Virus record (IMG/VR): IMGVR_UViG_2529293139_000010
Length of the DNA: 24,128 nucleotides
Reading direction: 5' to 3' (one strand)
From: a virus
Lineage: Duplodnaviria > Heunggongvirae > Uroviricota > Caudoviricetes
The notes below the pieces were generated by a model, which made no database searches, had not been told where the DNA came from, and saw nothing but the letters and a program-made list of their open reading frames with translations. Shown piece by piece: positions 3,877-20,238 of the stretch; positions within the stretch are counted from its first letter, which is position 1, and the number at the start of each line of letters is the position of its first letter. Made by a program: the position numbers and the translations under genes.

Positions 3877-3919
3877 GATTACTTAACTGGCAAAAAAACA
3901 TCCTCACTAATTGGAGCCA

Positions 3920-5010
3920 ATGGATACACGCATGTCAGACATTCTAATTACTTATGATGAACGGAAAGATAAATTTGAGTCCTATGCCCTTACTCTTAAA
4001 TCGTTATTAACCACGTTAATTCGCAATGAAAAAATTTCAATTCACTCACTTGAATCAAGAGTTAAAACAAAAAAAGCCTTGAAGGTAAGATTAATAAAAA
4101 GGGAAAATACAAGTCTATAGATGATATTACTGATATCGTTGGTATCAGGATCATCACACATTATGCCGATGATGTTGATAAGATAGCTGCTATAGTTGAA
4201 AAGGAGTTCACCATTGACCAAGAGAACTCTATTGATAAAAGAACCTCAATTGCGCCTGATAAATTTGGTTACCTATCACTTCATTATATAGTAACTTTAA
4301 ACTCAACCAGAACAAACTTAAAAGAATATGAAGTATATAAAAACATCAAAGCCGAATTACAAATACGATCAATCCTTCAGCATGCCTGGGCGGAGATTGA
4401 ACACGACATTGGTTATAAGTCGGCCACAGGACTGCCTAATGAAATAAGAAGATACTTTTCACGCTTAGCTGGTCTTTTAGAAATGGCCGATGATGAATTT
4501 ATTAAAATCAGAAAAAAGATTTCTGAACGGCAGAAAGAGGTTGCAAAAGAACTAGAGCAAGGAACTAGTGATTCAGTTTTAGATATTTTCACTTTGGATG
4601 AATTCTTAAACACAAGTCGAGTTATGAGTGAACTTTCAGAAGAGATAAAAGAAAAAACAGGAATCACAGTACATGGCCGATACAAGGATAAAGATTTGGG
4701 ATACCTACTAAATGGTTTAAACCTAGCCAACATAACTACAATAGAACAACTCAATCAAAAACTCTCACAAATGAAAAAGCAGATAGTAGATAGAATATTC
4801 TGCTTCGGAGAACCATTTATTAATTATTACAGAGAAACCACCATGCCAAAAGAAGCTCTTTTGAGTTATTTATGTCAAATTATCGTTGCGTTTCAAAACT
4901 CACCTTCGTTAGAATCTGAATTTAATAACAAAGCAGGTTTAAATCTGAAAAACAGAGATATCTCCGATTTTTTCTCGAATATAAGAGAAAACATAAGCAC
5001 ACAACCTTAG
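3920..5010 (+). CDS. RelA/SpoT-domain (small alarmone synthetase-like, fused toxSAS / CapRel-like) protein; reading frame interrupted by a -1 shift at an A7 tract (4069-4075)
   Basis: Track ORF 3911..4120 (+) ends RVKTKKALKVRLIKRENTSL*; shifting -1 after the A7 run gives ...KTKKSLEGKINKKGKYKSIDDITDIVGIRIITHYADD...FGYLSLHYIV...ELQIRSILQHAWAEIEHDIGYK, the signature order of RelA/SpoT synthetase motifs (G-loop D-x-x-G-x-R-I, GY-S-L-H, QIR-x-x-x-QHAWAE-x-EH), continuous with track ORF 4483..5010. The catalytic frame has a TAA at 4063-4065 and no upstream start of its own. About 160 aa of C-terminal extension follow the synthetase core, with no separate antitoxin ORF. Region is visibly AT-rich. 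Confidence 0.7.
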
Positions 5011-11291: not shown

Positions 11292-11464
11292 TGTCAGGAG
11301 TCCTGAATAGTGATTAGAGGAGTCACATGTCGGCATCAGTTTCCCGACGATGCGCATCCTCCGCCATCAGTCCCGGATGGCTTATCACTGACACAACAGC
11401 ACCTTAGCGAATCGCGGGGCGCGACTCAGTAGCCTTGCCGTGTATTCATCACGGCGAGGTATTC
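11292..11464. promoter_or_regulatory. Divergent late-promoter region between O (minus) and P-Q (plus)
   Basis: Intergenic between divergently oriented O and P; in P2 this interval carries the Ogr-dependent late promoters. A partial dyad TGTCGG-N10-CCGACG is visible around 11330-11352. Individual promoter elements not resolved. Confidence 0.4.
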
Positions 11465-13237
11465 ATGACCATCACCACAGACACCACTCTTTTACACGAC
11501 CCGCGTCGTCAGGCGGCGCTGCTGTACTGGCAGGGGTTTTCCGTGCCGCAGATTGCCGCCATGTTGCAGATGAAACGCCCGACGGTGCAGAGCTGGAAAC
11601 AGCGCGACGGCTGGGACAGCGTTGCCCCCATCAGCCGTGTCGAAATGAGTCTGGAAGCGCGACTGACCCAGCTCATCATCAAACCGCAGAAAACCGGCGG
11701 TGACTTCAAGGAAATTGACCTGCTCGGACGCCAGATTGAACGACTGGCACGGGTCAACCGCTACAGCCAGACCGGCAACGAGGCAGACCTTAATCCGAAC
11801 GTCGCTAACCGCAACAAAGGCGGGCGTCGCAAACCGAAAAAGAATTTTTTCAGTGACGAGGCCATCGAAAAGCTGGAGCAGATTTTCTTTGAGCAGTCTT
11901 TCGAATATCAGTTGCACTGGTATCGCGCCGGGCTTGAGCACCGCATCCGCGATATCCTGAAATCCCGCCAGATTGGCGCGACGTTTTATTTTTCCCGCGA
12001 GGCGCTGCTGCGCGCCCTGAAAACCGGTCATAACCAGATTTTTCTGTCGGCCAGTAAAACGCAGGCGTATGTGTTCCGTGAATACATCATCGCCTTTGCC
12101 CGGCTGGTTGACGTTGACCTGACCGGTGACCCGATTGTCCTGGGCAATAACGGCGCAAAACTGATTTTTCTCGGCACCAACTCCAACACCGCACAGAGCC
12201 ATAACGGCGACCTGTACGTCGACGAGATTTTCTGGATCCCGAATTTTCAGGTACTGCGTAAGGTGGCATCAGGTATGGCCTCACAGAGTCACCTGCGCTC
12301 GACCTATTTCTCCACCCCGTCCACGCTGGCGCACGACGCCTACCCGTTCTGGTCGGGTGAACTGTTCAACCGGGGACGCGCCAGCGCCGCCGAACGCGTG
12401 GAAATCGACGTCAGTCATAACGCCCTTGCCGGTGGGCTTCTCTGTGCGGACGGCCAGTGGCGGCAGATTGTCACCATTGAGGACGCCCTGAAAGGTGGCT
12501 GCACGTTGTTCGACATTGAGCAGCTCAAACGCGAAAACAGCGCCGACGATTTTAAAAACCTGTTCATGTGTGAATTTGTTGACGACAAGGCGTCAGTGTT
12601 CCCGTTCGAGGAGCTGCAACGCTGCATGGTCGACACGCTGGAAGAATGGGAAGACTATGCGCCGTTTGCCACCAATCCGTTCGGCTCCCGCCCGGTATGG
12701 ATTGGTTACGACCCGTCACACCGTGGCGACAGCGCCGGATGCGTGGTGCTGGCACCGCCGGTGGTGGCCGGTGGCAAATTCAGAATACTTGAGCGCCATC
12801 AGTGGAAAGGCATGGACTTTGCCACCCAGGCGGAATCCATCCGCAAACTCACCGAAAAATACAACGTCGAATACATCGGTATTGATGCCACCGGCCTCGG
12901 TGTCGGCGTGTTCCAGCTCGTGCGCTCGTTCTATCCCGCCGCGCGCGACATCCGCTACACGCCGGAAATGAAAACCGCAATGGTGCTCAAGGCAAAAGAC
13001 GTTATCCGCCGTGGCTGTCTGGAATATGACGTCAGCGCCACCGACATCACCAGCTCGTTTATGGCTATCCGCAAGACCATGACCAGCAGCGGACGCAGCG
13101 CCACCTATGAGGCCAGCCGCAGCGAGGAAGCCAGCCACGCCGACCTCGCCTGGGCGACCATGCACGCCCTGTTAAATGAGCCACTCACCGCCGGTATCAG
13201 CACCCCGCTGACATCCACCATTCTGGAGTTTTACTGA
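11465..13237 (+). CDS. P: Terminase large (ATPase) subunit (P2 gpP-like)
   Basis: Track ORF 11435..13237 (+); start placed at the ATG at 11465 (MTITTDTTLLHD...), giving 590 aa as I recall for P2 P; stop overlaps the Q start (TGATG). Confidence 0.9.
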   Translation: MTITTDTTLLHDPRRQAALLYWQGFSVPQIAAMLQMKRPTVQSWKQRDGWDSVAPISRVEMSLEARLTQLIIKPQKTGGDFKEIDLLGRQIERLARVNRYSQTGNEADLNPNVANRNKGGRRKPKKNFFSDEAIEKLEQIFFEQSFEYQLHWYRAGLEHRIRDILKSRQIGATFYFSREALLRALKTGHNQIFLSASKTQAYVFREYIIAFARLVDVDLTGDPIVLGNNGAKLIFLGTNSNTAQSHNGDLYVDEIFWIPNFQVLRKVASGMASQSHLRSTYFSTPSTLAHDAYPFWSGELFNRGRASAAERVEIDVSHNALAGGLLCADGQWRQIVTIEDALKGGCTLFDIEQLKRENSADDFKNLFMCEFVDDKASVFPFEELQRCMVDTLEEWEDYAPFATNPFGSRPVWIGYDPSHRGDSAGCVVLAPPVVAGGKFRILERHQWKGMDFATQAESIRKLTEKYNVEYIGIDATGLGVGVFQLVRSFYPAARDIRYTPEMKTAMVLKAKDVIRRGCLEYDVSATDITSSFMAIRKTMTSSGRSATYEASRSEEASHADLAWATMHALLNEPLTAGISTPLTSTILEFY

Positions 13238-14271
13238 TGAGCAAGAAAAAAGGGAAAACATCGCGACCTGCGGCAAAAACAATGACCGCCAGCGCCCCGA
13301 AAATGGAGGCATTCACCTTTGGTGAGCCGGTGCCGGTACTCGACCGCCGTGACATTCTGGATTACGTCGAGTGCATCAGTAACGGCAGATGGTATGAGCC
13401 ACCGGTCAGCTTTACCGGTCTGGCAAAAAGCCTGCGTGCTGCCGTGCATCACAGCTCACCGATTTACGTCAAACGTAATATTCTGGCCTCGACATTTATC
13501 CCGCATCCGTGGCTTTCCCAGCAGGATTTCAGCCGCTTTGTGCTGGATTTTCTGGTGTTCGGTAATGCGTTTCTGGAAAAGCGATACAGCACCACCGGTA
13601 AGGTCATCAGACTGGAAACCTCACCGGCAAAATATACCCGCCGTGGTGTGGAGGAGGATGTTTACTGGTGGGTGCCGTCCTTCAACGAGCCGACACCTTT
13701 CACGCCCGGCTCCGTGTTTCATCTGCTGGAGCCGGATATTAATCAGGAGCTGTACGGCCTGCCGGAATATCTCAGCGCCCTTAACTCTGCCTGGCTGAAT
13801 GAGTCGGCCACGCTGTTCCGCCGCAAGTATTACGAAAACGGCGCACATGCCGGATACATCATGTACGTCACTGATGCCGTGCAGGATCGCAACGATATCG
13901 AAATGCTCCGCGAAAACATGGTGAAGTCGAAAGGCCGCAACAACTTTAAAAATCTGTTTCTCTATGCCCCACAGGGGAAAGCCGACGGCATTAAAATTAT
14001 CCCGCTCAGTGAAGTCGCAACGAAGGACGATTTTTTTAATATCAAAAAAGCCAGCGCCGCTGACCTGCTGGACGCGCACCGCATCCCCTTTCAGTTGATG
14101 GGCGGCAAGCCGGAGAACGTCGGGTCGCTGGGTGATATTGAGAAAGTGGCAAAGGTCTTTGTCCGCAATGAGCTTATCCCGCTACAGGACAGGATCCGCG
14201 AGATAAACGGCTGGCTCGGTCAGGAGGTCATCCGCTTTAAAAACTACTCACTAGATACTTGCGATACCTAA
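13237..14271 (+). CDS. Q: Portal protein (P2 gpQ-like)
   Basis: ORF track 13237..14271 (+), 344 aa (length I recall for P2 Q); coupled to P. Confidence 0.9.
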   Translation: MSKKKGKTSRPAAKTMTASAPKMEAFTFGEPVPVLDRRDILDYVECISNGRWYEPPVSFTGLAKSLRAAVHHSSPIYVKRNILASTFIPHPWLSQQDFSRFVLDFLVFGNAFLEKRYSTTGKVIRLETSPAKYTRRGVEEDVYWWVPSFNEPTPFTPGSVFHLLEPDINQELYGLPEYLSALNSAWLNESATLFRRKYYENGAHAGYIMYVTDAVQDRNDIEMLRENMVKSKGRNNFKNLFLYAPQGKADGIKIIPLSEVATKDDFFNIKKASAADLLDAHRIPFQLMGGKPENVGSLGDIEKVAKVFVRNELIPLQDRIREINGWLGQEVIRFKNYSLDTCDT

Positions 14272-14315
14272 TATATAAACTCGGATATGCCATTCATAAT
14301 GGCACGACACCTTAA

Positions 14316-14348
14316 AACGGCACTATAAGCAACGACCATAGTGCCGTT
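14316..14348. terminator. Perfect 11-bp-stem hairpin between convergent Q and cargo gene 2 (AACGGCACTAT-N11-ATAGTGCCGTT)
   Basis: 14316-14326 is the exact reverse complement of 14338-14348. Sits between the Q stop (14271) and the cargo operon stop (14363). No strong U-run, so terminator role is inferred. Confidence 0.35.
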
Positions 14349-14362
14349 CAATAACCAAGAAA

Positions 14363-15454
14363 TCATCCCATTTCAGCCAACAACCGTCCTATATTTGAGC
14401 GCAAGATTTCCTTTTTACTCTCATCAAAAACTCCTTGAATAGTGGATAACAAAACTTCAACCAGTTTATCTCGCCTACTATCCTCAGCAAAAATTTTTAT
14501 TATATTTGAAAATTCAGATTTAAATTCACGATGAATGAAAAGAAGCACATAACTAATATTATTATAGTGTTCAATATCAATTTCTGAATTCTCAATAGAT
14601 TCCTCATTGACCTTTCTTTTTAAAAGCGATGCAAGCCTAATAACATCTCCTTGCCTTGCTTGATTATCTCCAATGATAATAGCCAAAGTATCAATCAAAC
14701 TACTGGAACTTTCTTTAAAGAAATATTCTTCTGATATAGTTGCTAAAACACCATCCTTTAACGATTCCGATGATATTTTTAAACCCACCAAGGAAAGACG
14801 TTCAATTGCTCTTTGAGGGGTATAAACCAACCATTCAGCATGTCTCCTTTCATTTCTTACTATGCTTCTCAATAGATATTGAGATCTATCAAGTGTTATT
14901 AGCATGGGAGTACTGAAGTAACCATTGGAATCAAGATGTAGGGTTTCATCACTCAAAGTTGCAGCACATATAACATCATTTTCTATGGCTCGAGCGGGAC
15001 GTGAAGAATTCAAATCCCTTTTAAGTTTTTGCTTTATTTTAAATACAAAGTCTTGTGACACCGAGTCTTTATTATCAATTACAACAATATTTGCTGACGC
15101 TAGTAAATTATGAATGCATTGCGCAAATGTGTCATGCTTATACCCCGCATAAATATCATCTTTATCCAACCCTAGAAAAGCATAAGTAAAATCGTAAAAA
15201 TCTGTACGTTTAGGCTGTTTGTTTTTCCACCGCATATAAACATTAAAGTATACATTTTTCGACTCACCAAGTTGACTAATTAAATCTTCAGTTACAAACT
15301 GACTTAATTTTTCAGCTTCAGAGTAGTGCCTTGCAGTTTCTTCAAAATGTTCATTAGAAACTCTCAGATGTTTATTTTTGAGGGGATTTATGCACTCTCT
15401 CAGTAAATTTATATTTTTAATCGACTTATCAAAAAGCTCAAAATCTCCAAACAT
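14363..15454 (-). CDS. Cargo gene 2 of a two-gene AT-rich operon; hypothetical protein (about 363 aa), no recognisable motifs
   Basis: Track ORF 14363..15466 (-) uses a TTG; the first ATG is the rev-comp of 15452-15454, 8 nt after the stop of the upstream gene. Very AT-rich, Lys/Asn/Ile/Glu-rich. No Shine-Dalgarno seen, suggesting translational coupling. Confidence 0.7.
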   Translation of the reverse strand: MFGDFELFDKSIKNINLLRECINPLKNKHLRVSNEHFEETARHYSEAEKLSQFVTEDLISQLGESKNVYFNVYMRWKNKQPKRTDFYDFTYAFLGLDKDDIYAGYKHDTFAQCIHNLLASANIVVIDNKDSVSQDFVFKIKQKLKRDLNSSRPARAIENDVICAATLSDETLHLDSNGYFSTPMLITLDRSQYLLRSIVRNERRHAEWLVYTPQRAIERLSLVGLKISSESLKDGVLATISEEYFFKESSSSLIDTLAIIIGDNQARQGDVIRLASLLKRKVNEESIENSEIDIEHYNNISYVLLFIHREFKSEFSNIIKIFAEDSRRDKLVEVLLSTIQGVFDESKKEILRSNIGRLLAEMG

Positions 15455-15462
15455 AAGAGTTA

Positions 15463-16623
15463 TCAAATATGGAATAAGAACAGGCGCATCAAAGTAGATA
15501 TAAAAATTTTATTTTCAATATATTTCTCTAATTTCCGATCACTTAACAGATTCACACATAATTTAGCAGAGCAATGCTCGGATAAATAGTCATTTTGACC
15601 AGCCAACTCCATTAGCTTTTTTGCTAAAGCATCCGAAGACTCATCATCCAAATCATATTCCTGCCGTATCAACACCTTTAAATTATGTACTATAGTTTTG
15701 AATATCTGTAATTTTGGAGGCTCAAATTTACTTTCTGTTAATTGGACATTTATTGATTCTTCATAAGCCTTTATTATTAAATCAACAACTTGAACAGCCA
15801 GATTCTTACTTGTATTTCTGGGCAACTCATTATTTATTACTGATAACAACTCTTCTTTTCTGACAATTTCACGGAGATTTATATTCTCAAGCTTTTTAAT
15901 TTCCTCTGGTGACAGGCTATATATACCATCATTCAATCTAATTTTATTTTGATGAATTAGGTTTTGCAGTCTACCCTGTAAACTACGTTTTGTAAGACTA
16001 ACACCTTTTAGATTCTCTAGAATATCATCAGCAGACTTCCCGCCATCATATAAATTAGACATAATACTAGCTTTTATTATTTCATTTTTTAAATTAGCAC
16101 TATCTTTGCTTAACAATAAATATTCATAAAATGCTCTTTGTTGCAAGTTAATTGCATCTTCAGTATTAGAACTTATCTTATGTATATCTTTTATTAAGTA
16201 ATTCAATAACCCTGGGTATTTATCTGTAATATCTTGAGAGATCCGTTTGGCATCATAAAACTCCAATCTAATCAAATCTTCCTTAAGAGCATTTGTTCTT
16301 ATCTTATCCAATAAATGCTCAGATATTGAATGACTCCAAAAAAAATATAATACAGGCGGGTAATAATGATCATCAACCAATTTCGCCACTTTTTTAATAT
16401 CTTGAGCAATCTTACTTTCAATATTTTTCTCTTGAATAGATATTTGTACAGCTTGCTTTAACTCTCTATTCCCCTTTTTTATTACCAAATCCTTTCCATT
16501 ATCCCAAGGACCACCGATCAGATATGTTTCACCACCAAATAACTCATTTGCATATAGTTTTATAAGGTTTTCGAAATCAGATTCAACCGAGATAGAGCTT
16601 AATAACTTAGAGTTATTATTCAT
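15463..16623 (-). CDS. Cargo gene 1 of the two-gene AT-rich operon; hypothetical protein (about 386 aa) with an N-terminal Mrr/NERD-like (PD-(D/E)xK-type) nuclease motif
   Basis: Track ORF 15463..16629 (-); start placed at the ATG (rev-comp of 16621-16623) preceded by AAGGA at good spacing. N-terminus FENLIKLYANELFGGETYLIGGPWDNGKDLVIKK...AVQISIQEK resembles the Mrr catalytic pattern (D-x-G-x-D ... Q-x-K) by eye. Rest is helical-looking and K/E/N-rich. Confidence 0.7.
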   Translation of the reverse strand: MNNNSKLLSSISVESDFENLIKLYANELFGGETYLIGGPWDNGKDLVIKKGNRELKQAVQISIQEKNIESKIAQDIKKVAKLVDDHYYPPVLYFFWSHSISEHLLDKIRTNALKEDLIRLEFYDAKRISQDITDKYPGLLNYLIKDIHKISSNTEDAINLQQRAFYEYLLLSKDSANLKNEIIKASIMSNLYDGGKSADDILENLKGVSLTKRSLQGRLQNLIHQNKIRLNDGIYSLSPEEIKKLENINLREIVRKEELLSVINNELPRNTSKNLAVQVVDLIIKAYEESINVQLTESKFEPPKLQIFKTIVHNLKVLIRQEYDLDDESSDALAKKLMELAGQNDYLSEHCSAKLCVNLLSDRKLEKYIENKIFISTLMRLFLFHI

Positions 16624-16783
16624 AACCAATCCTTTTAATGTCTTTACTCTTATATTTTAAGATAATTTTCAACTTATCTGCATTACATGAGACAATAGCA
16701 TAGGACTGTAGGATTTGCTCTGCCCTTCAATCATTTTGTGTCTTAGCTTATGTCACAAATATTTCAAGAACATTTTGCGCGCA

Positions 16784-16802
16784 GTGCTTTCCCCGCCTCG
16801 CC
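16784..16802. other. cos site: 19-nt cohesive-end sequence identical to that of phage P2 (reverse complement of GGCGAGGCGGGGAAAGCAC)
   Basis: Plus strand reads GTGCTTTCCCCGCCTCGCC at 16784-16802, the exact reverse complement of the P2 cohesive end as I recall it; lies between portal Q and replication gene A as expected for a P2-type prophage. Confidence 0.75.
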
Positions 16803-17086
16803 CGCCCGCTTCACGGGGCGGTTTTAATGCAGTTGCATAGATACTATGGATCCGCACCAGTCCTGACCGCACGCAGCCTGAACGGACATCCCCAACGCAT
16901 GCAAAAACATTCACTTGTTGCATGCATAGCTTTTTAAGTACGCCATACCGCAACTGTACATTTTTAAGCAATTGGCAACTTTAAAAAATTTACATTGCTT
17001 TCAAGACCTTATCATCCGTAGTCTCTGTTTTTTACTTTGAGCTACATCAATAAAATCTCAAACATGTTTAATGCAAAGCCCTTGTT

Positions 17087-17136
17087 ACACAACATAGAAT
17101 GTATGTCTAGAAACAACGACATACTATATGTTGTGT
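17087..17136. repeat. 50-bp imperfect palindrome (ACACAACATA-gaat-GTATGTC-N10-GACATAC-tata-TGTTGTGT) followed by a T5 run
   Basis: Read directly: 17087-17096 is the reverse complement of 17127-17136 (TATGTTGTGT), and 17101-17107 of 17118-17124. Could fold as a long hairpin (terminator or structured RNA) or serve as an operator. Confidence 0.5.
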
Positions 17137-17202
17137 TTTTCCGGCTCTCTGTTCGGTGATATGCCAAATCACTTTGCGTTTAAACAGAGCATTATTTCAG
17201 GG

Positions 17203-17217
17203 CAAGACTTCGCTCAA
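17203..17217 (+). repeat. 15-bp direct repeat copy 1 (CAAGACTTCGCTCAA)
   Basis: Exact 15-mer also present at 17467-17481; the two copies bracket the small ORF and its terminator. Confidence 0.6.
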
Positions 17218-17280
17218 AAGTCATTCCACCTAAGAAGCGCATATACCGGTGGAAGTTGCCCTCTACTTACAGGAGGCAAT

Positions 17281-17394
17281 ATGAAGAAATGCTATTACTG
17301 CATTCTCGTTCTGGCCCTCTTTGGCTATCCAAACGGTAGTCCGAGTGGTTTGTCAGTAAACGTCAGTAATATCAATGTCAGCATTATGCTTTAA
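17281..17394 (+). CDS. Candidate small hydrophobic protein (37 aa, MKKCYYCILVLALFGYPNGSPSGLSVNVSNINVSIML)
   Basis: AGGAGG at 17271-17276, 4 nt before the ATG at 17281; hydrophobic N-terminal half; stop at 17392-17394, followed 12 nt later by a canonical intrinsic terminator. The track lists it only as the 3' part of a longer alternative-start ORF 17128..17394. Confidence 0.4.
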   Translation: MKKCYYCILVLALFGYPNGSPSGLSVNVSNINVSIML

Positions 17395-17406
17395 TATGCT
17401 TCAAAC

Positions 17407-17436
17407 AAAAAAACCACCTGCCAGGGTGGTTTTTTT
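17407..17436. terminator. Bidirectional rho-independent terminator (A7 - GC-rich stem-loop - T7)
   Basis: AAAAAAA CCACCTG-C-CAGGGTGG TTTTTTT: stem CCACC/GGTGG with a short loop, flanked by an A-run upstream and a T-run downstream, so it can terminate transcripts from both strands (small ORF on plus; A operon on minus). Confidence 0.7.
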
Positions 17437-17466
17437 GCGCCCATCATCAATACGATGAAAGACTGA

Positions 17467-17696: not shown

Positions 17697-19976
17697 TCAA
17701 ATGGGTAACGAGAACCCCGGCCACTCATCAGCAACCGGATACGTGAATTTTTTCCCATCATAATTTACGGTTGCCCCACGCGCCAGCGCCTCAAGCTCCC
17801 ATCGCTGCGGCCTGATACCGTTCTGAGCAAGGTCAACGCGGATACGGGTAATTTGCATTCGTTCCGACCGGGTCAGTCTGGCCGATGGCGCTATTTCATG
17901 CGGTTTTAACGGGCTTCCGCTTCTTTGCTGACGGTTTGGTGTTCTCAGGTCGTGTTTTAATGCGCCCCTGAGCGCCCTCACGACCTCCTGGTCATTCCAT
18001 TCGATAACACCGTCATCAACCAGATTAAGCACTGCGGCGGCGTGCTCAGAAGGTGTGGGAGCCGGTAACGAAGCATCACTACCGGTGAGCTTTCCACAGT
18101 TATTGACAGGACTCCGAGGCGCGGCGATGCCGCTTTTTAAAGTCAAAGGCTCAACGACCGGCACTTTCGGCACAATGCGCCAGTCCGTCGTTCTGGTGAT
18201 ATGAATATGACGCGCGCCGAGATGCGGCGCGTAAATGCCGACCACTCTCTCGACTTCTTCCTCGTATTCGTTAACGTCATCCGACGGGCTACGGGCGACC
18301 CTGACAGTCTGACAATCGCGCGGGACATTTGCCCCGCCCTGCGCGCTGATATACAGCGCAAAATCGCCACTGTCTGCGGCGGCGCGTGCAGCCTCCACGC
18401 GTTCGTCAAATTCATCAGCAATGCTGACGCCGCGAGGCAATTTACGTAGCTCACGGTAAGCTCCCATTGTCGGCAGGCCAACCGTTTTAAATTGCGGGAT
18501 GCGCCACGTTGACGCCCATGCGGTAACAGCCGCCGCAGTATCTTTCAGCGGTCTGCCGGTATCGTTATCGAGCTGACCATCCAGTGCATAGCCGTCGATA
18601 TTTTTTGAAATGTATTTCGCGATATATCCCGCAGCACCGCCCCGGTTAAGGTGTTTTGCCTGAAAACGGTTTCGCGCGGCTCCTCTTTCGTCGCCATCCT
18701 CTTTGAGCGCATAGCGATGCATGATTTCGATAATCTGGTTACGCTGGCGTGGATTACAAAAAAGCATCATATGCCAGTGCGGCGTTCCGTCGTGGTGTGG
18801 CTCGACGACTCGCAAACCGTAGACCTGTAAATCATTATCCTTGAATGCCGTGCGCATCAGGCTCCAGATACGGCAGAGATAACGCTGCGCATCCTTTGGA
18901 TTAAATGCCTCATCATTCCAGCCGTGATTAAGCTGGACGGTTTTATTTTCGCCTTTTCCAACCTGACGTGTCGGGTGATACTTTGACGGCGCGGTAAGCG
19001 TGATAAACATCCCCACATCACCCTCTGAGGCGGCGTAACGCTCAATACCGGCAATGGTGTTCATCAGCTCCATCCGGCGAATTTCAGGATTAGAAATACT
19101 GCCCATCACCTTACTGATAAGGTCGATGCGCTCGCCGGTTTCCCTGTTTTCAAGGTCACACGATTTAAGAAATTCCAGATTTGCCTGGCGGCGCGCACGC
19201 ACATCCCGAATGGCATGTTTACTGGCATAAGGAGAACGGTCTTTATTGACCTCCCCGACAGCTATCAGTAACGCCTCATGCCAGCGCATACGCTGGCCTT
19301 TAAGCTGATGAGTCCACCACTCATCGTTAAACAGACGGGCAATGGCAGAATATGCCTGCCTCGTGGTCATCTGTCCTTTACGGTATTTTTTCCAGTAGAG
19401 AGGGGAAATATTGAAAGCACGTGCAGCGCCAGCAACATGACCATAGAGGTGAGCCTGCGCCTCATCCGTAAACAGCGATTCTTTCTCGCCATGCGCATCC
19501 ACCCAGGCATCGCAGAGTTCCTCATACATCATGAAAAGCTGCGATGAGATACGGGCAGCAAACTTTTTCAGCTCCTTGTCATTCATTCCCGGCAGGCGCG
19601 CATACTGGTCGCGCTCTGCCAGAAACAGCAACGACGCATCGGTGTTCATTTCATGGCGCTGATTCACGCGCTCAATGCGCGGCCATAAACGACGCTGAAA
19701 AGTGGATGTGAGGAAATAAAACCCGTGCACCGGGCTTTTATTGCGCCTGATGTAGTCATAGCGTGAAGTAAACAGCGAGCGCAAAAAGTAAGGCAGGCGG
19801 TTAATCGTGGATAAAACACCTTGCACCTGACGCATCTCGTCACGTGTAAGGGGTCTTTCGCGCCCGACGGCCTCGCGTGGCGCGTTCCATGCATAAGCAC
19901 CGGTAAACGTCTCACCGGTGCCTGCGGCAAATGCTGACGGAGGGACAAAACGCCCGGAGGCTTTAACGGCCATATG
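17697..19976 (-). CDS. A: Replication initiation endonuclease (P2 gpA-like, HUH rolling-circle initiator)
   Basis: Track ORF 17697..20015 (-), 772 aa; contains the H-x-H motif HWHMMLF and Tyr-rich region typical of rolling-circle initiators. Start placed at the internal Met MAVKASGRFVPPSAF... (about 759 aa); the upstream start at 20015 is the alternative. Confidence 0.85.
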   Translation of the reverse strand, partial: HMAVKASGRFVPPSAFAAGTGETFTGAYAWNAPREAVGRERPLTRDEMRQVQGVLSTINRLPYFLRSLFTSRYDYIRRNKSPVHGFYFLTSTFQRRLWPRIERVNQRHEMNTDASLLFLAERDQYARLPGMNDKELKKFAARISSQLFMMYEELCDAWVDAHGEKESLFTDEAQAHLYGHVAGAARAFNISPLYWKKYRKGQMTTRQAYSAIARLFNDEWWTHQLKGQRMRWHEALLIAVGEVNKDRSPYASKHAIRDVRARRQANLEFLKSCDLENRETGERIDLISKVMGSISNPEIRRMELMNTIAGIERYAASEGDVGMFITLTAPSKYHPTRQVGKGENKTVQLNHGWNDEAFNPKDAQRYLCRIWSLMRTAFKDNDLQVYGLRVVEPHHDGTPHWHMMLFCNPRQRNQIIEIMHRYALKEDGDERGAARNRFQAKHLNRGGAAGYIAKYISKNIDGYALDGQLDNDTGRPLKDTAAAVTAWASTWRIPQFKTVGLPTMGAYRELRKLPRGVSIADEFDERVEAARAAADSGDFALYISAQGGANVPRDCQTVRVARSPSDDVNEYEEEVERVVGIYAPHLGARHIHITRTTDWRIVPKVPVVEPLTLKSGIAAPRSPVNNCGKLTGSDASLPAPTPSEHAAAVLNLVDDGVIEWNDQEVVRALRGALKHDLRTPNRQQRSGSPLKPHEIAPSARLTRSERMQITRIRVDLAQNGIRPQRWELEALARGATVNYDGKKFTYPVADEWPGFSLPI

Positions 19977-20238
19977 AGCCAAAAGCCTCTGAACAACGCT
20001 TGCTGAGTTGCTCAACCTGCGCGTTTAAATCAGCAAAAGACTTTGCGCTTCCGGTCAGAATATCGTGATGCATCAGACCGGAAACAAGCTGGCTTAATTT
20101 CGGGTAATAACCAACCACCGCCAGCCATTCCTGACCGGCGTTTTTACCGCTTTCAGCTCTCTTTTTCTCGTGGAGAATAAACTGAAAGCTGTCACTGGTA
20201 ACGACATAACGTTCGCCAATTTCAATACGAATACTCAT
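19963..20238 (-). CDS. Hypothetical early-operon protein (between B and A)
   Basis: ORF track 19963..20238 (-), 91 aa; 4-nt overlap with the upstream zinc-finger ORF; position matches the small orf80-83 cluster of P2. Confidence 0.6.
   Translation of the reverse strand: MSIRIEIGERYVVTSDSFQFILHEKKRAESGKNAGQEWLAVVGYYPKLSQLVSGLMHHDILTGSAKSFADLNAQVEQLSKRCSEAFGSYGR

Follow-up and report, generated by a model that had tools for sequence, protein, structure and literature searches.

The AT-rich segment that separates the portal gene Q from the cos site in a P2-like prophage raises the question of what it encodes and whether it serves in anti-phage defence. The prophage is the record IMGVR_UViG_2529293139_000010 of IMG/VR (Caudoviricetes), a stretch of 24,128 nucleotides (nt) that we call the window. 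A preliminary description of its sequence read positions 14,363 to 16,623 as a coupled operon of two genes, a possible nuclease paired with a second unknown protein, and proposed it as a candidate for an undescribed defence system. We find that the region is one gene, a member of the family of WP_053286240.1, that encodes a protein of 753 amino acids (aa) and is split in the window into two open reading frames (ORFs) by a deletion of 1 nt. In its intact form, the gene probably encodes a stand-alone multidomain nuclease that would act as a self-contained anti-phage defence or abortive-infection protein, inactivated in the window.

The two ORFs of 386 and 363 aa do lie on the minus strand between Q and cos at the coordinates first given for them (Table 1). 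Yet at this cargo the Escherichia coli strain 1218KP has one annotated coding sequence of 2262 nt, whose product is the 753-aa WP_053286240.1, and the window differs from the 1218KP cargo by six substitutions and one single-base indel. The insertion of one A restores a 753-aa protein whose sole difference from WP_053286240.1 is V544A. The search of 5.8 billion clustered proteins identified 46 relatives with 27-100% identity, nearly all of 752-762 aa, from Rahnella, Erwinia, Serratia, Klebsiella, Enterobacter, Vibrio, Aeromonas, Pectobacterium, Pantoea, and Pseudomonas. When 1.84 billion representatives were searched with a profile, 499 relatives were found (195 with E <= 1e-30), mostly of 750-780 aa. 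Two separate genes are not conserved among them: all of the 46 and nearly all of the 499 are single chains of about 750-780 aa that cover the junction of ORF1 and ORF2, the full-length ones having about 753 aa. The alignment of the 46 is unbroken across this junction, which is placed inside the best-conserved block (FYIYLDAPVLIPYL). Exact look-ups found the 386-aa and the 363-aa products on one contig each (E. coli E1520, GCA_000190815.1, scaffold GL871772.1) and one intact 753-aa form on 215 contigs; counting near-identical copies, the total exceeds 215 contigs. The coupling that was originally described is therefore correct in its stop and start coordinates but does not join two genes, because both ORFs result from a 1-nt deletion in one 2262-nt ORF. 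Similarly, nuclease folds are present, as had been suspected, but the pairing of two proteins does not hold, since the relatives are single chains of about 753 aa.

The lesion is at codon 373, where the window has a run of four A (15507-15510) and its relatives have five (GAAAAT-AAAA-TTTTT in the window vs GAAAAT-AAAAA-TTTTT in 1218KP). The codon of D379 (GAT, 15490-15488), a residue that is invariant in the family, falls in the wrong frame in the last part of ORF1 and precedes the start of ORF2 (M390). The products of the split are a fragment with the Mrr-type domain, the winged helix-turn-helix (wHTH) and the linker, and a PIN fragment without strand 1 and D379. Because this invariant catalytic residue is in neither ORF, the sequence as written is inactive, and its cloning in this form would probably provide no protection.

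We surveyed the entire window for similar lesions by comparing it with two close prophages (about 97.5% identity). This revealed three indels that are specific to the window: one at 4069 (A8 to A7), one at 17430 (T8 to T7, relative to the only reference covering the site), and the one near 15507 (A5 to A4). Each of them removes a base from an A/T homopolymer. Another AT-rich cargo gene (3911-5010, plus strand), located between the baseplate gene V and a virion morphogenesis gene, is broken at about 4062-4069 by the 1-nt deletion in its poly-A run. In 14 out of 14 complete E. coli genomes with that gene, it is intact and encodes a 359-aa "GTP pyrophosphokinase" (RelA/SpoT-like), which matches the PADLOC candidate PDC-S33 (E 1e-16). 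We favour a sequencing artefact because two cargo genes are broken alike within 24 kb of an early draft assembly, of 2011. The lesion at codon 373 would then be an under-called homopolymer, which we regard as the probable explanation; the draft GCA_000190815.1 is one that we take to date from the pyrosequencing era.

The domains of the intact protein are, in order, an Mrr-type PD-(D/E)xK domain, a winged helix, a helical linker, a VapC-like PIN domain, and a helical tail. The AlphaFold model of the intact protein (pLDDT 81) has both the alpha/beta fold of PD-(D/E)xK nucleases and the PIN fold, which supersedes the initial impression that no nuclease motif was visible. We aligned 52 members of the family, down to 15% identity, and found seven invariant columns (D379, E429, A437, N457, D550, D579, and P603). 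These include the four conserved acidic residues of PIN domains, D379, E429, D550, and D579, present in 52 out of 52 members. The first is located after strand 1, the second in the helix after strand 2, the third in an NDxxxAxxL helix, and the fourth in a TxD turn. This placement is the arrangement of a PIN acidic tetrad. The NDxxxAxxL and (I/V)TxDxxF motifs resemble those of VapC proteins. The Mrr-type domain is less uniform: D41 is an aspartate in 38 of the 52 members, D45 in 44, and Q60 is kept in 35. The position of the canonical lysine is occupied by T/S in 42 members, and K71, on the next helix, is a lysine in 39.

Sequence profiles identify these domains poorly. Weak matches to Mrr_cat (PF04471) were found in 12 of the 52 members (best E 0.0076), all below the Pfam gathering threshold, and there was none in the E. 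coli protein itself. None of the Pfam thresholds of the PIN clan was reached; the sole match was to PIN_12 in one remote member (E 0.0055, 17.5 bits vs a cutoff of 32). The profile searches that were run on both halves and on the intact protein (Pfam, NCBIfam, and PADLOC) returned nothing significant, consistent with the early remark that neither product was recognised as a known family. Searches of the Protein Data Bank (PDB) by sequence and by family profile gave only chance-level matches, and the Foldseek search of the whole chain against PDB and BFVD was uninformative except for matches to the wHTH.

The family is widespread, with about 500 representatives at 50% clustering in Proteobacteria, Bacteroidota, Verrucomicrobia, Cloacimonadota, and Clostridia, and its N-terminal part varies. 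Some remote relatives, of 800-840 aa, align to the profile only from about position 150. The N-terminus of two of them (P0131 and P0146) resembles DUF4062 (24.0 bits vs a cutoff of 24.7). Seven others (P0166, P0174, P0176, P0180, P0181, P0189, and P0191) have an N-terminal helical domain of about 200 residues with a conserved Y..RN.(x)VHNSP motif, and one of these RNxxH-type N-termini has a sub-threshold match to HEPN_Apea (E 0.0035). All N-terminally swapped relatives keep the wHTH-PIN core and the tetrad. The N-terminal module can be exchanged, in contrast to the PIN core. We therefore regard the PIN domain as the putative indispensable enzyme, because the N-terminal module is swapped while the tetrad is invariant in all 52 members.

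We then examined the locus. The cargo segment, of 2.5 kb, extends from 14272 to about 16776, between Q and cos, and its G+C content is 0.29-0.34 vs 0.53-0.59 in the backbone. The end of the record of Yersinia phage VB-YPM-4 maps onto position 16803 of the window, next to the cohesive-end sequence that limits the slot on the right. On the left, a hairpin between the convergent genes (-23.8 kcal/mol, z -4.4, equally stable in 0 out of 200 shuffles) is likely to be the terminator of the cargo gene. The promoter scan found sites that were no more numerous than chance predicts, and we claim no promoter; Rfam at gathering thresholds had no match in the whole window. A megablast search with 14272-17100 found the cargo in 1 out of 5426 complete E. 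coli genomes (strain 1218KP) and the backbone from 16777 onward in 2137. The Q-cos slot of sibling prophages has other cargo: PD-T4-4 in E. coli W, a SIR2 gene in M172-1, and three hypothetical genes with an IS3 element in strain 401651. The slot in E. coli W (L035 13135-15133) includes the validated PD-T4-4 A+B (PADLOC, E 2e-112 and 1e-15), which served as a positive control for the library.

Hence, the gene is located between gpQ and gpA, adjoins cos, and is in a position whose content varies among siblings. In P2-like prophages, the gpA-cos-gpQ region is a hypervariable hotspot of defence genes (Rousset et al. 2022, PMC9122126; analysed anew in PMC13586616), and about a third of the systems cloned from it were active (Rousset et al. 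2022, PMC9122126). These results support the conclusion that the segment is horizontally acquired cargo of this hotspot. They bear out the preliminary description in its account of the AT-richness, of the acquisition into the A-cos-Q hotspot, and of a locus that should vary between related prophages.

Table 1. Features of the window discussed in the text (positions are those of the window; residues are those of the intact protein).
Feature	Positions	Strand	Basis or remarks
Single gene for the 753-aa protein (WP_053286240.1 family)	14363-16623	-	Split in the window by a 1-nt deletion into ORFs of 386 and 363 aa
ORF1, 386 aa	ORF 15463-16629; ATG at 16623; stop 15465-15463	-	ORF list and sequence
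ORF2, 363 aa	ORF 14363-15466; ATG 15454-15452	-	ORF list and sequence
Frameshift site, codon 373	15502-15510	-	Coding strand AAAATTTTT (A4T5); intact copies AAAAATTTTT (A5T5)
Mrr-type PD-(D/E)xK restriction-endonuclease fold, residues 1-147	16183-16623	-	GGPxDxGxD ... QI(S/T)xQ ... K71
Winged helix-turn-helix domain, residues about 175-237	15913-16101	-	
Helical linker, residues about 239-372, ends at the frameshift	15508-15909	-	AlphaFold model
VapC-like PIN domain with helical insert, residues about 374-615	14780-15505	-	Acidic tetrad D379, E429, D550, D579
C-terminal helical domain, residues about 616-753	14366-14779	-	AlphaFold model; no informative fold match
AT-rich cargo segment	14272-16776	.	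Replaces other cargo of sibling P2-like prophages; G+C and genome comparison
Hairpin between convergent genes	14316-14348	-	Perfect 11-bp stem AACGGCACTAT / ATAGTGCCGTT, then UUUU
P2 cos cohesive-end 19-mer GGCGAGGCGGGGAAAGCAC	16784-16802	-	Exact match (0 matches by chance in 100 shuffles); bounds the cargo slot on the right
Terminase gene P	11435-13237	+	ORF list
Portal gene Q	13237-14271	+	ORF list
Replication gene A (gpA)	17697-20015	-	ORF list

The other side of cos has a small ORF within 17128-17440, between cos and gpA, that is unannotated in the relatives and has no PADLOC match. An internal ATG at 17282, after AGGAGG, opens a hydrophobic peptide of 37 aa (MKKCYYCILVLALFGYP...). A GC-rich hairpin with a T-run is found 3' of this peptide ORF, at about 17408-17436, with T7 in the window vs T8 in E. 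coli W.

The gene is solitary in every context that we examined, and these contexts are diverse. The Rahnella homologue likewise occupies the A-Q slot, in a P2/186-like prophage, and that of Klebsiella aerogenes is at the end of a lambdoid prophage. The homologues of Vibrio parahaemolyticus and Pseudomonas aeruginosa are in islands with integrases, insertion sequences, or resolvases. Just one homologue is plasmid-borne (65% identity); it lies in the leading region of an IncFII conjugative plasmid of Raoultella terrigena (L036 9001-11262), on the opposite strand, among psiB, ssb, an antirestriction gene (ardA), and methylase genes. The Erwinia homologue adjoins smpB, and those of Pectobacterium and Aeromonas are solo insertions. 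The homologue of the Enterobacter cloacae complex (L030 8001-10271, 54% identity) stands by itself, flanked by baeSR and a yegQ-like peptidase U32 gene, and is next to yegS. The baeR/yegQ-like region is the chromosomal integration region of these E. coli P2 prophages, and this lone gene looks like a remnant of cargo after loss of the prophage. In strain 1218KP, the P2 prophage itself has decayed (L001 4685-10048): of the terminase and gpA only partial pseudogenes are left, and the structural genes have mostly been lost, yet the 2262-nt ORF is intact.

We also scanned the neighbourhoods of 14 remote loci from Betaproteobacteria, Bacteroidota, Verrucomicrobia, and Clostridia with PADLOC and Pfam, on crude ORF calls. 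We found two Gabija neighbours, three integrases, and RadC and Schlafen-like genes, which is a modest signal of defence and mobile elements. No partner gene is conserved across the 10 annotated and 14 unannotated contexts. The small adjacent antitoxin gene that defines VapBC systems has no equivalent either, since the 10 annotated contexts have no conserved neighbour. A tblastn search of 50,697 phage records returned no match, i.e., the gene is in no isolated phage genome of that set. Separately, in 3 out of 3 contexts of V. parahaemolyticus (L003-L005 12554-12829), a conserved ORF of 91 aa without Pfam match follows immediately downstream, on the other strand; the enterobacterial contexts lack it.

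The family was proposed as undescribed, but it has been listed twice. In Table S5 of Rousset et al. 2022 (PMC9122126), two P2 hotspot loci have WP_053286240 as their only cargo, labelled "hypothetical". Table S10 of DefensePredictor ("uncharacterized_clusters") also includes it (Science 2026, PMC13092281). There its label is "Predicted novel defense gene" and its mean log-odds is 13.06, and HHblits matches 18% of its length to a Type IV Mrr domain with a probability of 97.1. The accession is found in supplements of the literature and not in main texts, and our search of the literature for the Mrr and PIN architecture returned nothing relevant.

Taken together, these data make the gene a plausible single-protein defence candidate, already flagged by others. 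We infer a defence role with reasonable confidence, and consider that the intact protein would fulfil it on its own. The following mechanism is conceivable. The winged helix and the helical regions could bind nucleic acid and keep the enzyme inactive until infection relieves the inhibition and releases the PIN nuclease, whose targets would likely be RNA or structured nucleic acid. A second nuclease or a target-binding arm could be provided by the N-terminal module, which is exchangeable. The specific division of labour in this scheme, in which the PIN domain is indispensable and the N-terminus accessory, is a tentative suggestion.

Several points weigh against this interpretation. PADLOC-DB 2.0 has no family that matches the intact protein or either half, up to E 10, and WP_053286240 is not part of the set that was tested with DefensePredictor (PMC13092281). 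Many remote loci and several chromosomal copies have housekeeping neighbours, and those with defence neighbours are a minority. The catalytic competence of the Mrr-type domain is uncertain, given the S/T at the position of the canonical (D/E/Q)xK lysine. Sequence by itself does not tell the sensing domain from the killing one. Finally, there is a considerable possibility that the lesion at codon 373 is a real frameshift, private to the strain, in which case the gene may be dead in E1520.

The alternative that survives best is a function other than defence, which we consider unlikely. The gene would encode a selfish addiction or toxin system, or else a nuclease that mobile elements use to compete, to establish themselves, or to process DNA. 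VapC proteins are well known as toxins, and the VapC-like PIN domain fits this view, as do the plasmid homologue in a leading region among psiB, ssb, and ardA, and the chromosomal copies that have only housekeeping neighbours. However, none of the contexts has a conserved antitoxin-like neighbour. The alternation of validated defence systems in the same slot, the persistence of an intact ORF in decaying prophages, and the high DefensePredictor score also argue for defence.

A second alternative, to which we attribute a still smaller chance, is a Type IV-like enzyme that restricts modified DNA directly, without abortive infection. The Mrr-type domain would be the only effector that cleaves DNA, the winged helix would read the modified phage DNA, and the PIN region would be structural or regulatory. 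Type IV enzymes typically combine a nuclease with a winged helix that binds DNA, and both the weak Mrr_cat matches and the HHblits probability are in line with it. Yet it is precisely this N-terminal module that is exchangeable, whereas the PIN tetrad is invariant in 52/52 members, which points to the PIN domain as the indispensable enzyme. Moreover, the lysine of the (D/E/Q)xK motif is replaced by S/T and no member attains the gathering score of Mrr_cat.

The remaining alternatives concern the split itself. A genuine operon, with an Mrr-wHTH protein and a PIN-containing protein translated separately as partners of a two-component system, has almost no chance of being correct. The ORFs are long, lie on the same strand with 8 nt between the stop of ORF1 and the ATG of ORF2, and are annotated in RefSeq as two hypothetical proteins (WP_001063929.1 and WP_000466599.1). 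But a stop followed by an ATG at such a distance is what a frameshift within a single ORF produces, we found no Shine-Dalgarno sequence upstream of the ATG of ORF2, and the difference from the intact gene is one homopolymer base. The relatives are single polypeptides, the split form is on one contig vs 215 with the intact one, and the junction disrupts the most conserved block at the cost of the invariant D379. We rejected as equally improbable a programmed ribosomal frameshift or a phase-variable switch that would give short and full-length products at the A4T5 run, because such runs can slip but the dominant intact copies need no frameshift, the 0-frame AAT AAA ATT TTT forms no X XXY YYZ slippery heptamer in our reading of the sequence, the A4 state is in one assembly only, and a second gene of the window has a similar lesion.

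These results have practical and conceptual consequences. When the assembly is an old draft, ORFs of AT-rich cargo that seem tightly coupled can in fact be a single gene interrupted at a homopolymer, and the window contains a second such case. Anyone cloning the E1520 sequence as written would probably work with a dead allele. The association of two nuclease folds (Mrr-type and PIN, with a winged helix) in one chain is a combination not seen in described systems. If defence were validated, a single-protein system with a PIN core would join the known repertoire and provide a tractable model for the sensing of infection and the control of two nuclease domains within a single polypeptide. This would not change the paradigm, since the gene is already catalogued and was flagged by a published predictor.

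How does the family compare with known systems? It shares the GxxDxGxD motif with Mrr-type and Type IV restriction endonucleases (PF04471; AspBHI, MspJI, and the N-terminal nuclease of Avs4 and LlaBIII), and in Avs4, as here, the Mrr-type domain makes up the N-terminal part of a larger protein of the defence type. Unlike those enzymes, it remains below the Pfam threshold, has S/T in place of the QxK lysine, lacks an NTPase, an SRA domain, or another known reader of modifications, and has its Mrr-type domain fused to a PIN domain that is absent from them. The complete D-E-D-D tetrad is shared with VapC-type PIN toxins (VapC15, 21, and 26, FitB, and Pfu 1y82). In contrast to the toxins, the PIN domain is embedded in a 753-aa protein, has a helical insert of about 90 residues, remains below the Pfam PIN thresholds, and has no VapB-like antitoxin gene.

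A further comparison is with DS-3 and DS-5, the PIN-nuclease defence systems validated in E. coli by DefensePredictor (PMC13092281). DS-3 is a single protein of accessory DNA that provides PIN-dependent anti-phage defence in E. coli without an antitoxin, and its PIN domain is also interrupted by a helical insert and thought to be autoinhibited (PMC13092281). DS-3 and DS-5B differ from the 753-aa family in their length (340 and 376 aa) and in lacking Mrr and wHTH domains. Membership in either system was rejected, since hhalign with the family profile gave probabilities of 0.6% for DS-3 (WP_022645725.1) and 1.1% for DS-5B (WP_021513009.1). The old and tin genes of P2 and PD-T4-4 share with our gene the gpA-cos-gpQ slot, the character of AT-rich morons, and the carriage by lysogens, but have no kinship in sequence or domains: there is no ATPase or Toprim domain here and no match to the hidden Markov models of Old, PD-T4-4, or AriA. 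Shedu (SduA) is described as one polypeptide with a conserved nuclease core and diverse N-terminal domains, an organisation similar to that of the family. The Shedu core is a DUF4263 PD-(D/E)xK domain, vs a PIN domain here, and PADLOC gave no Shedu match. Overall, the arguments seem to us evenly balanced on whether these proteins form a family of single-protein immune nucleases, free of partners and not recognised experimentally, with an invariant wHTH-PIN core and a swappable N-terminus (Mrr-type, HEPN-like, or DUF4062). If they do, the family would be a PIN-based counterpart of the modularity of Shedu or Avs.

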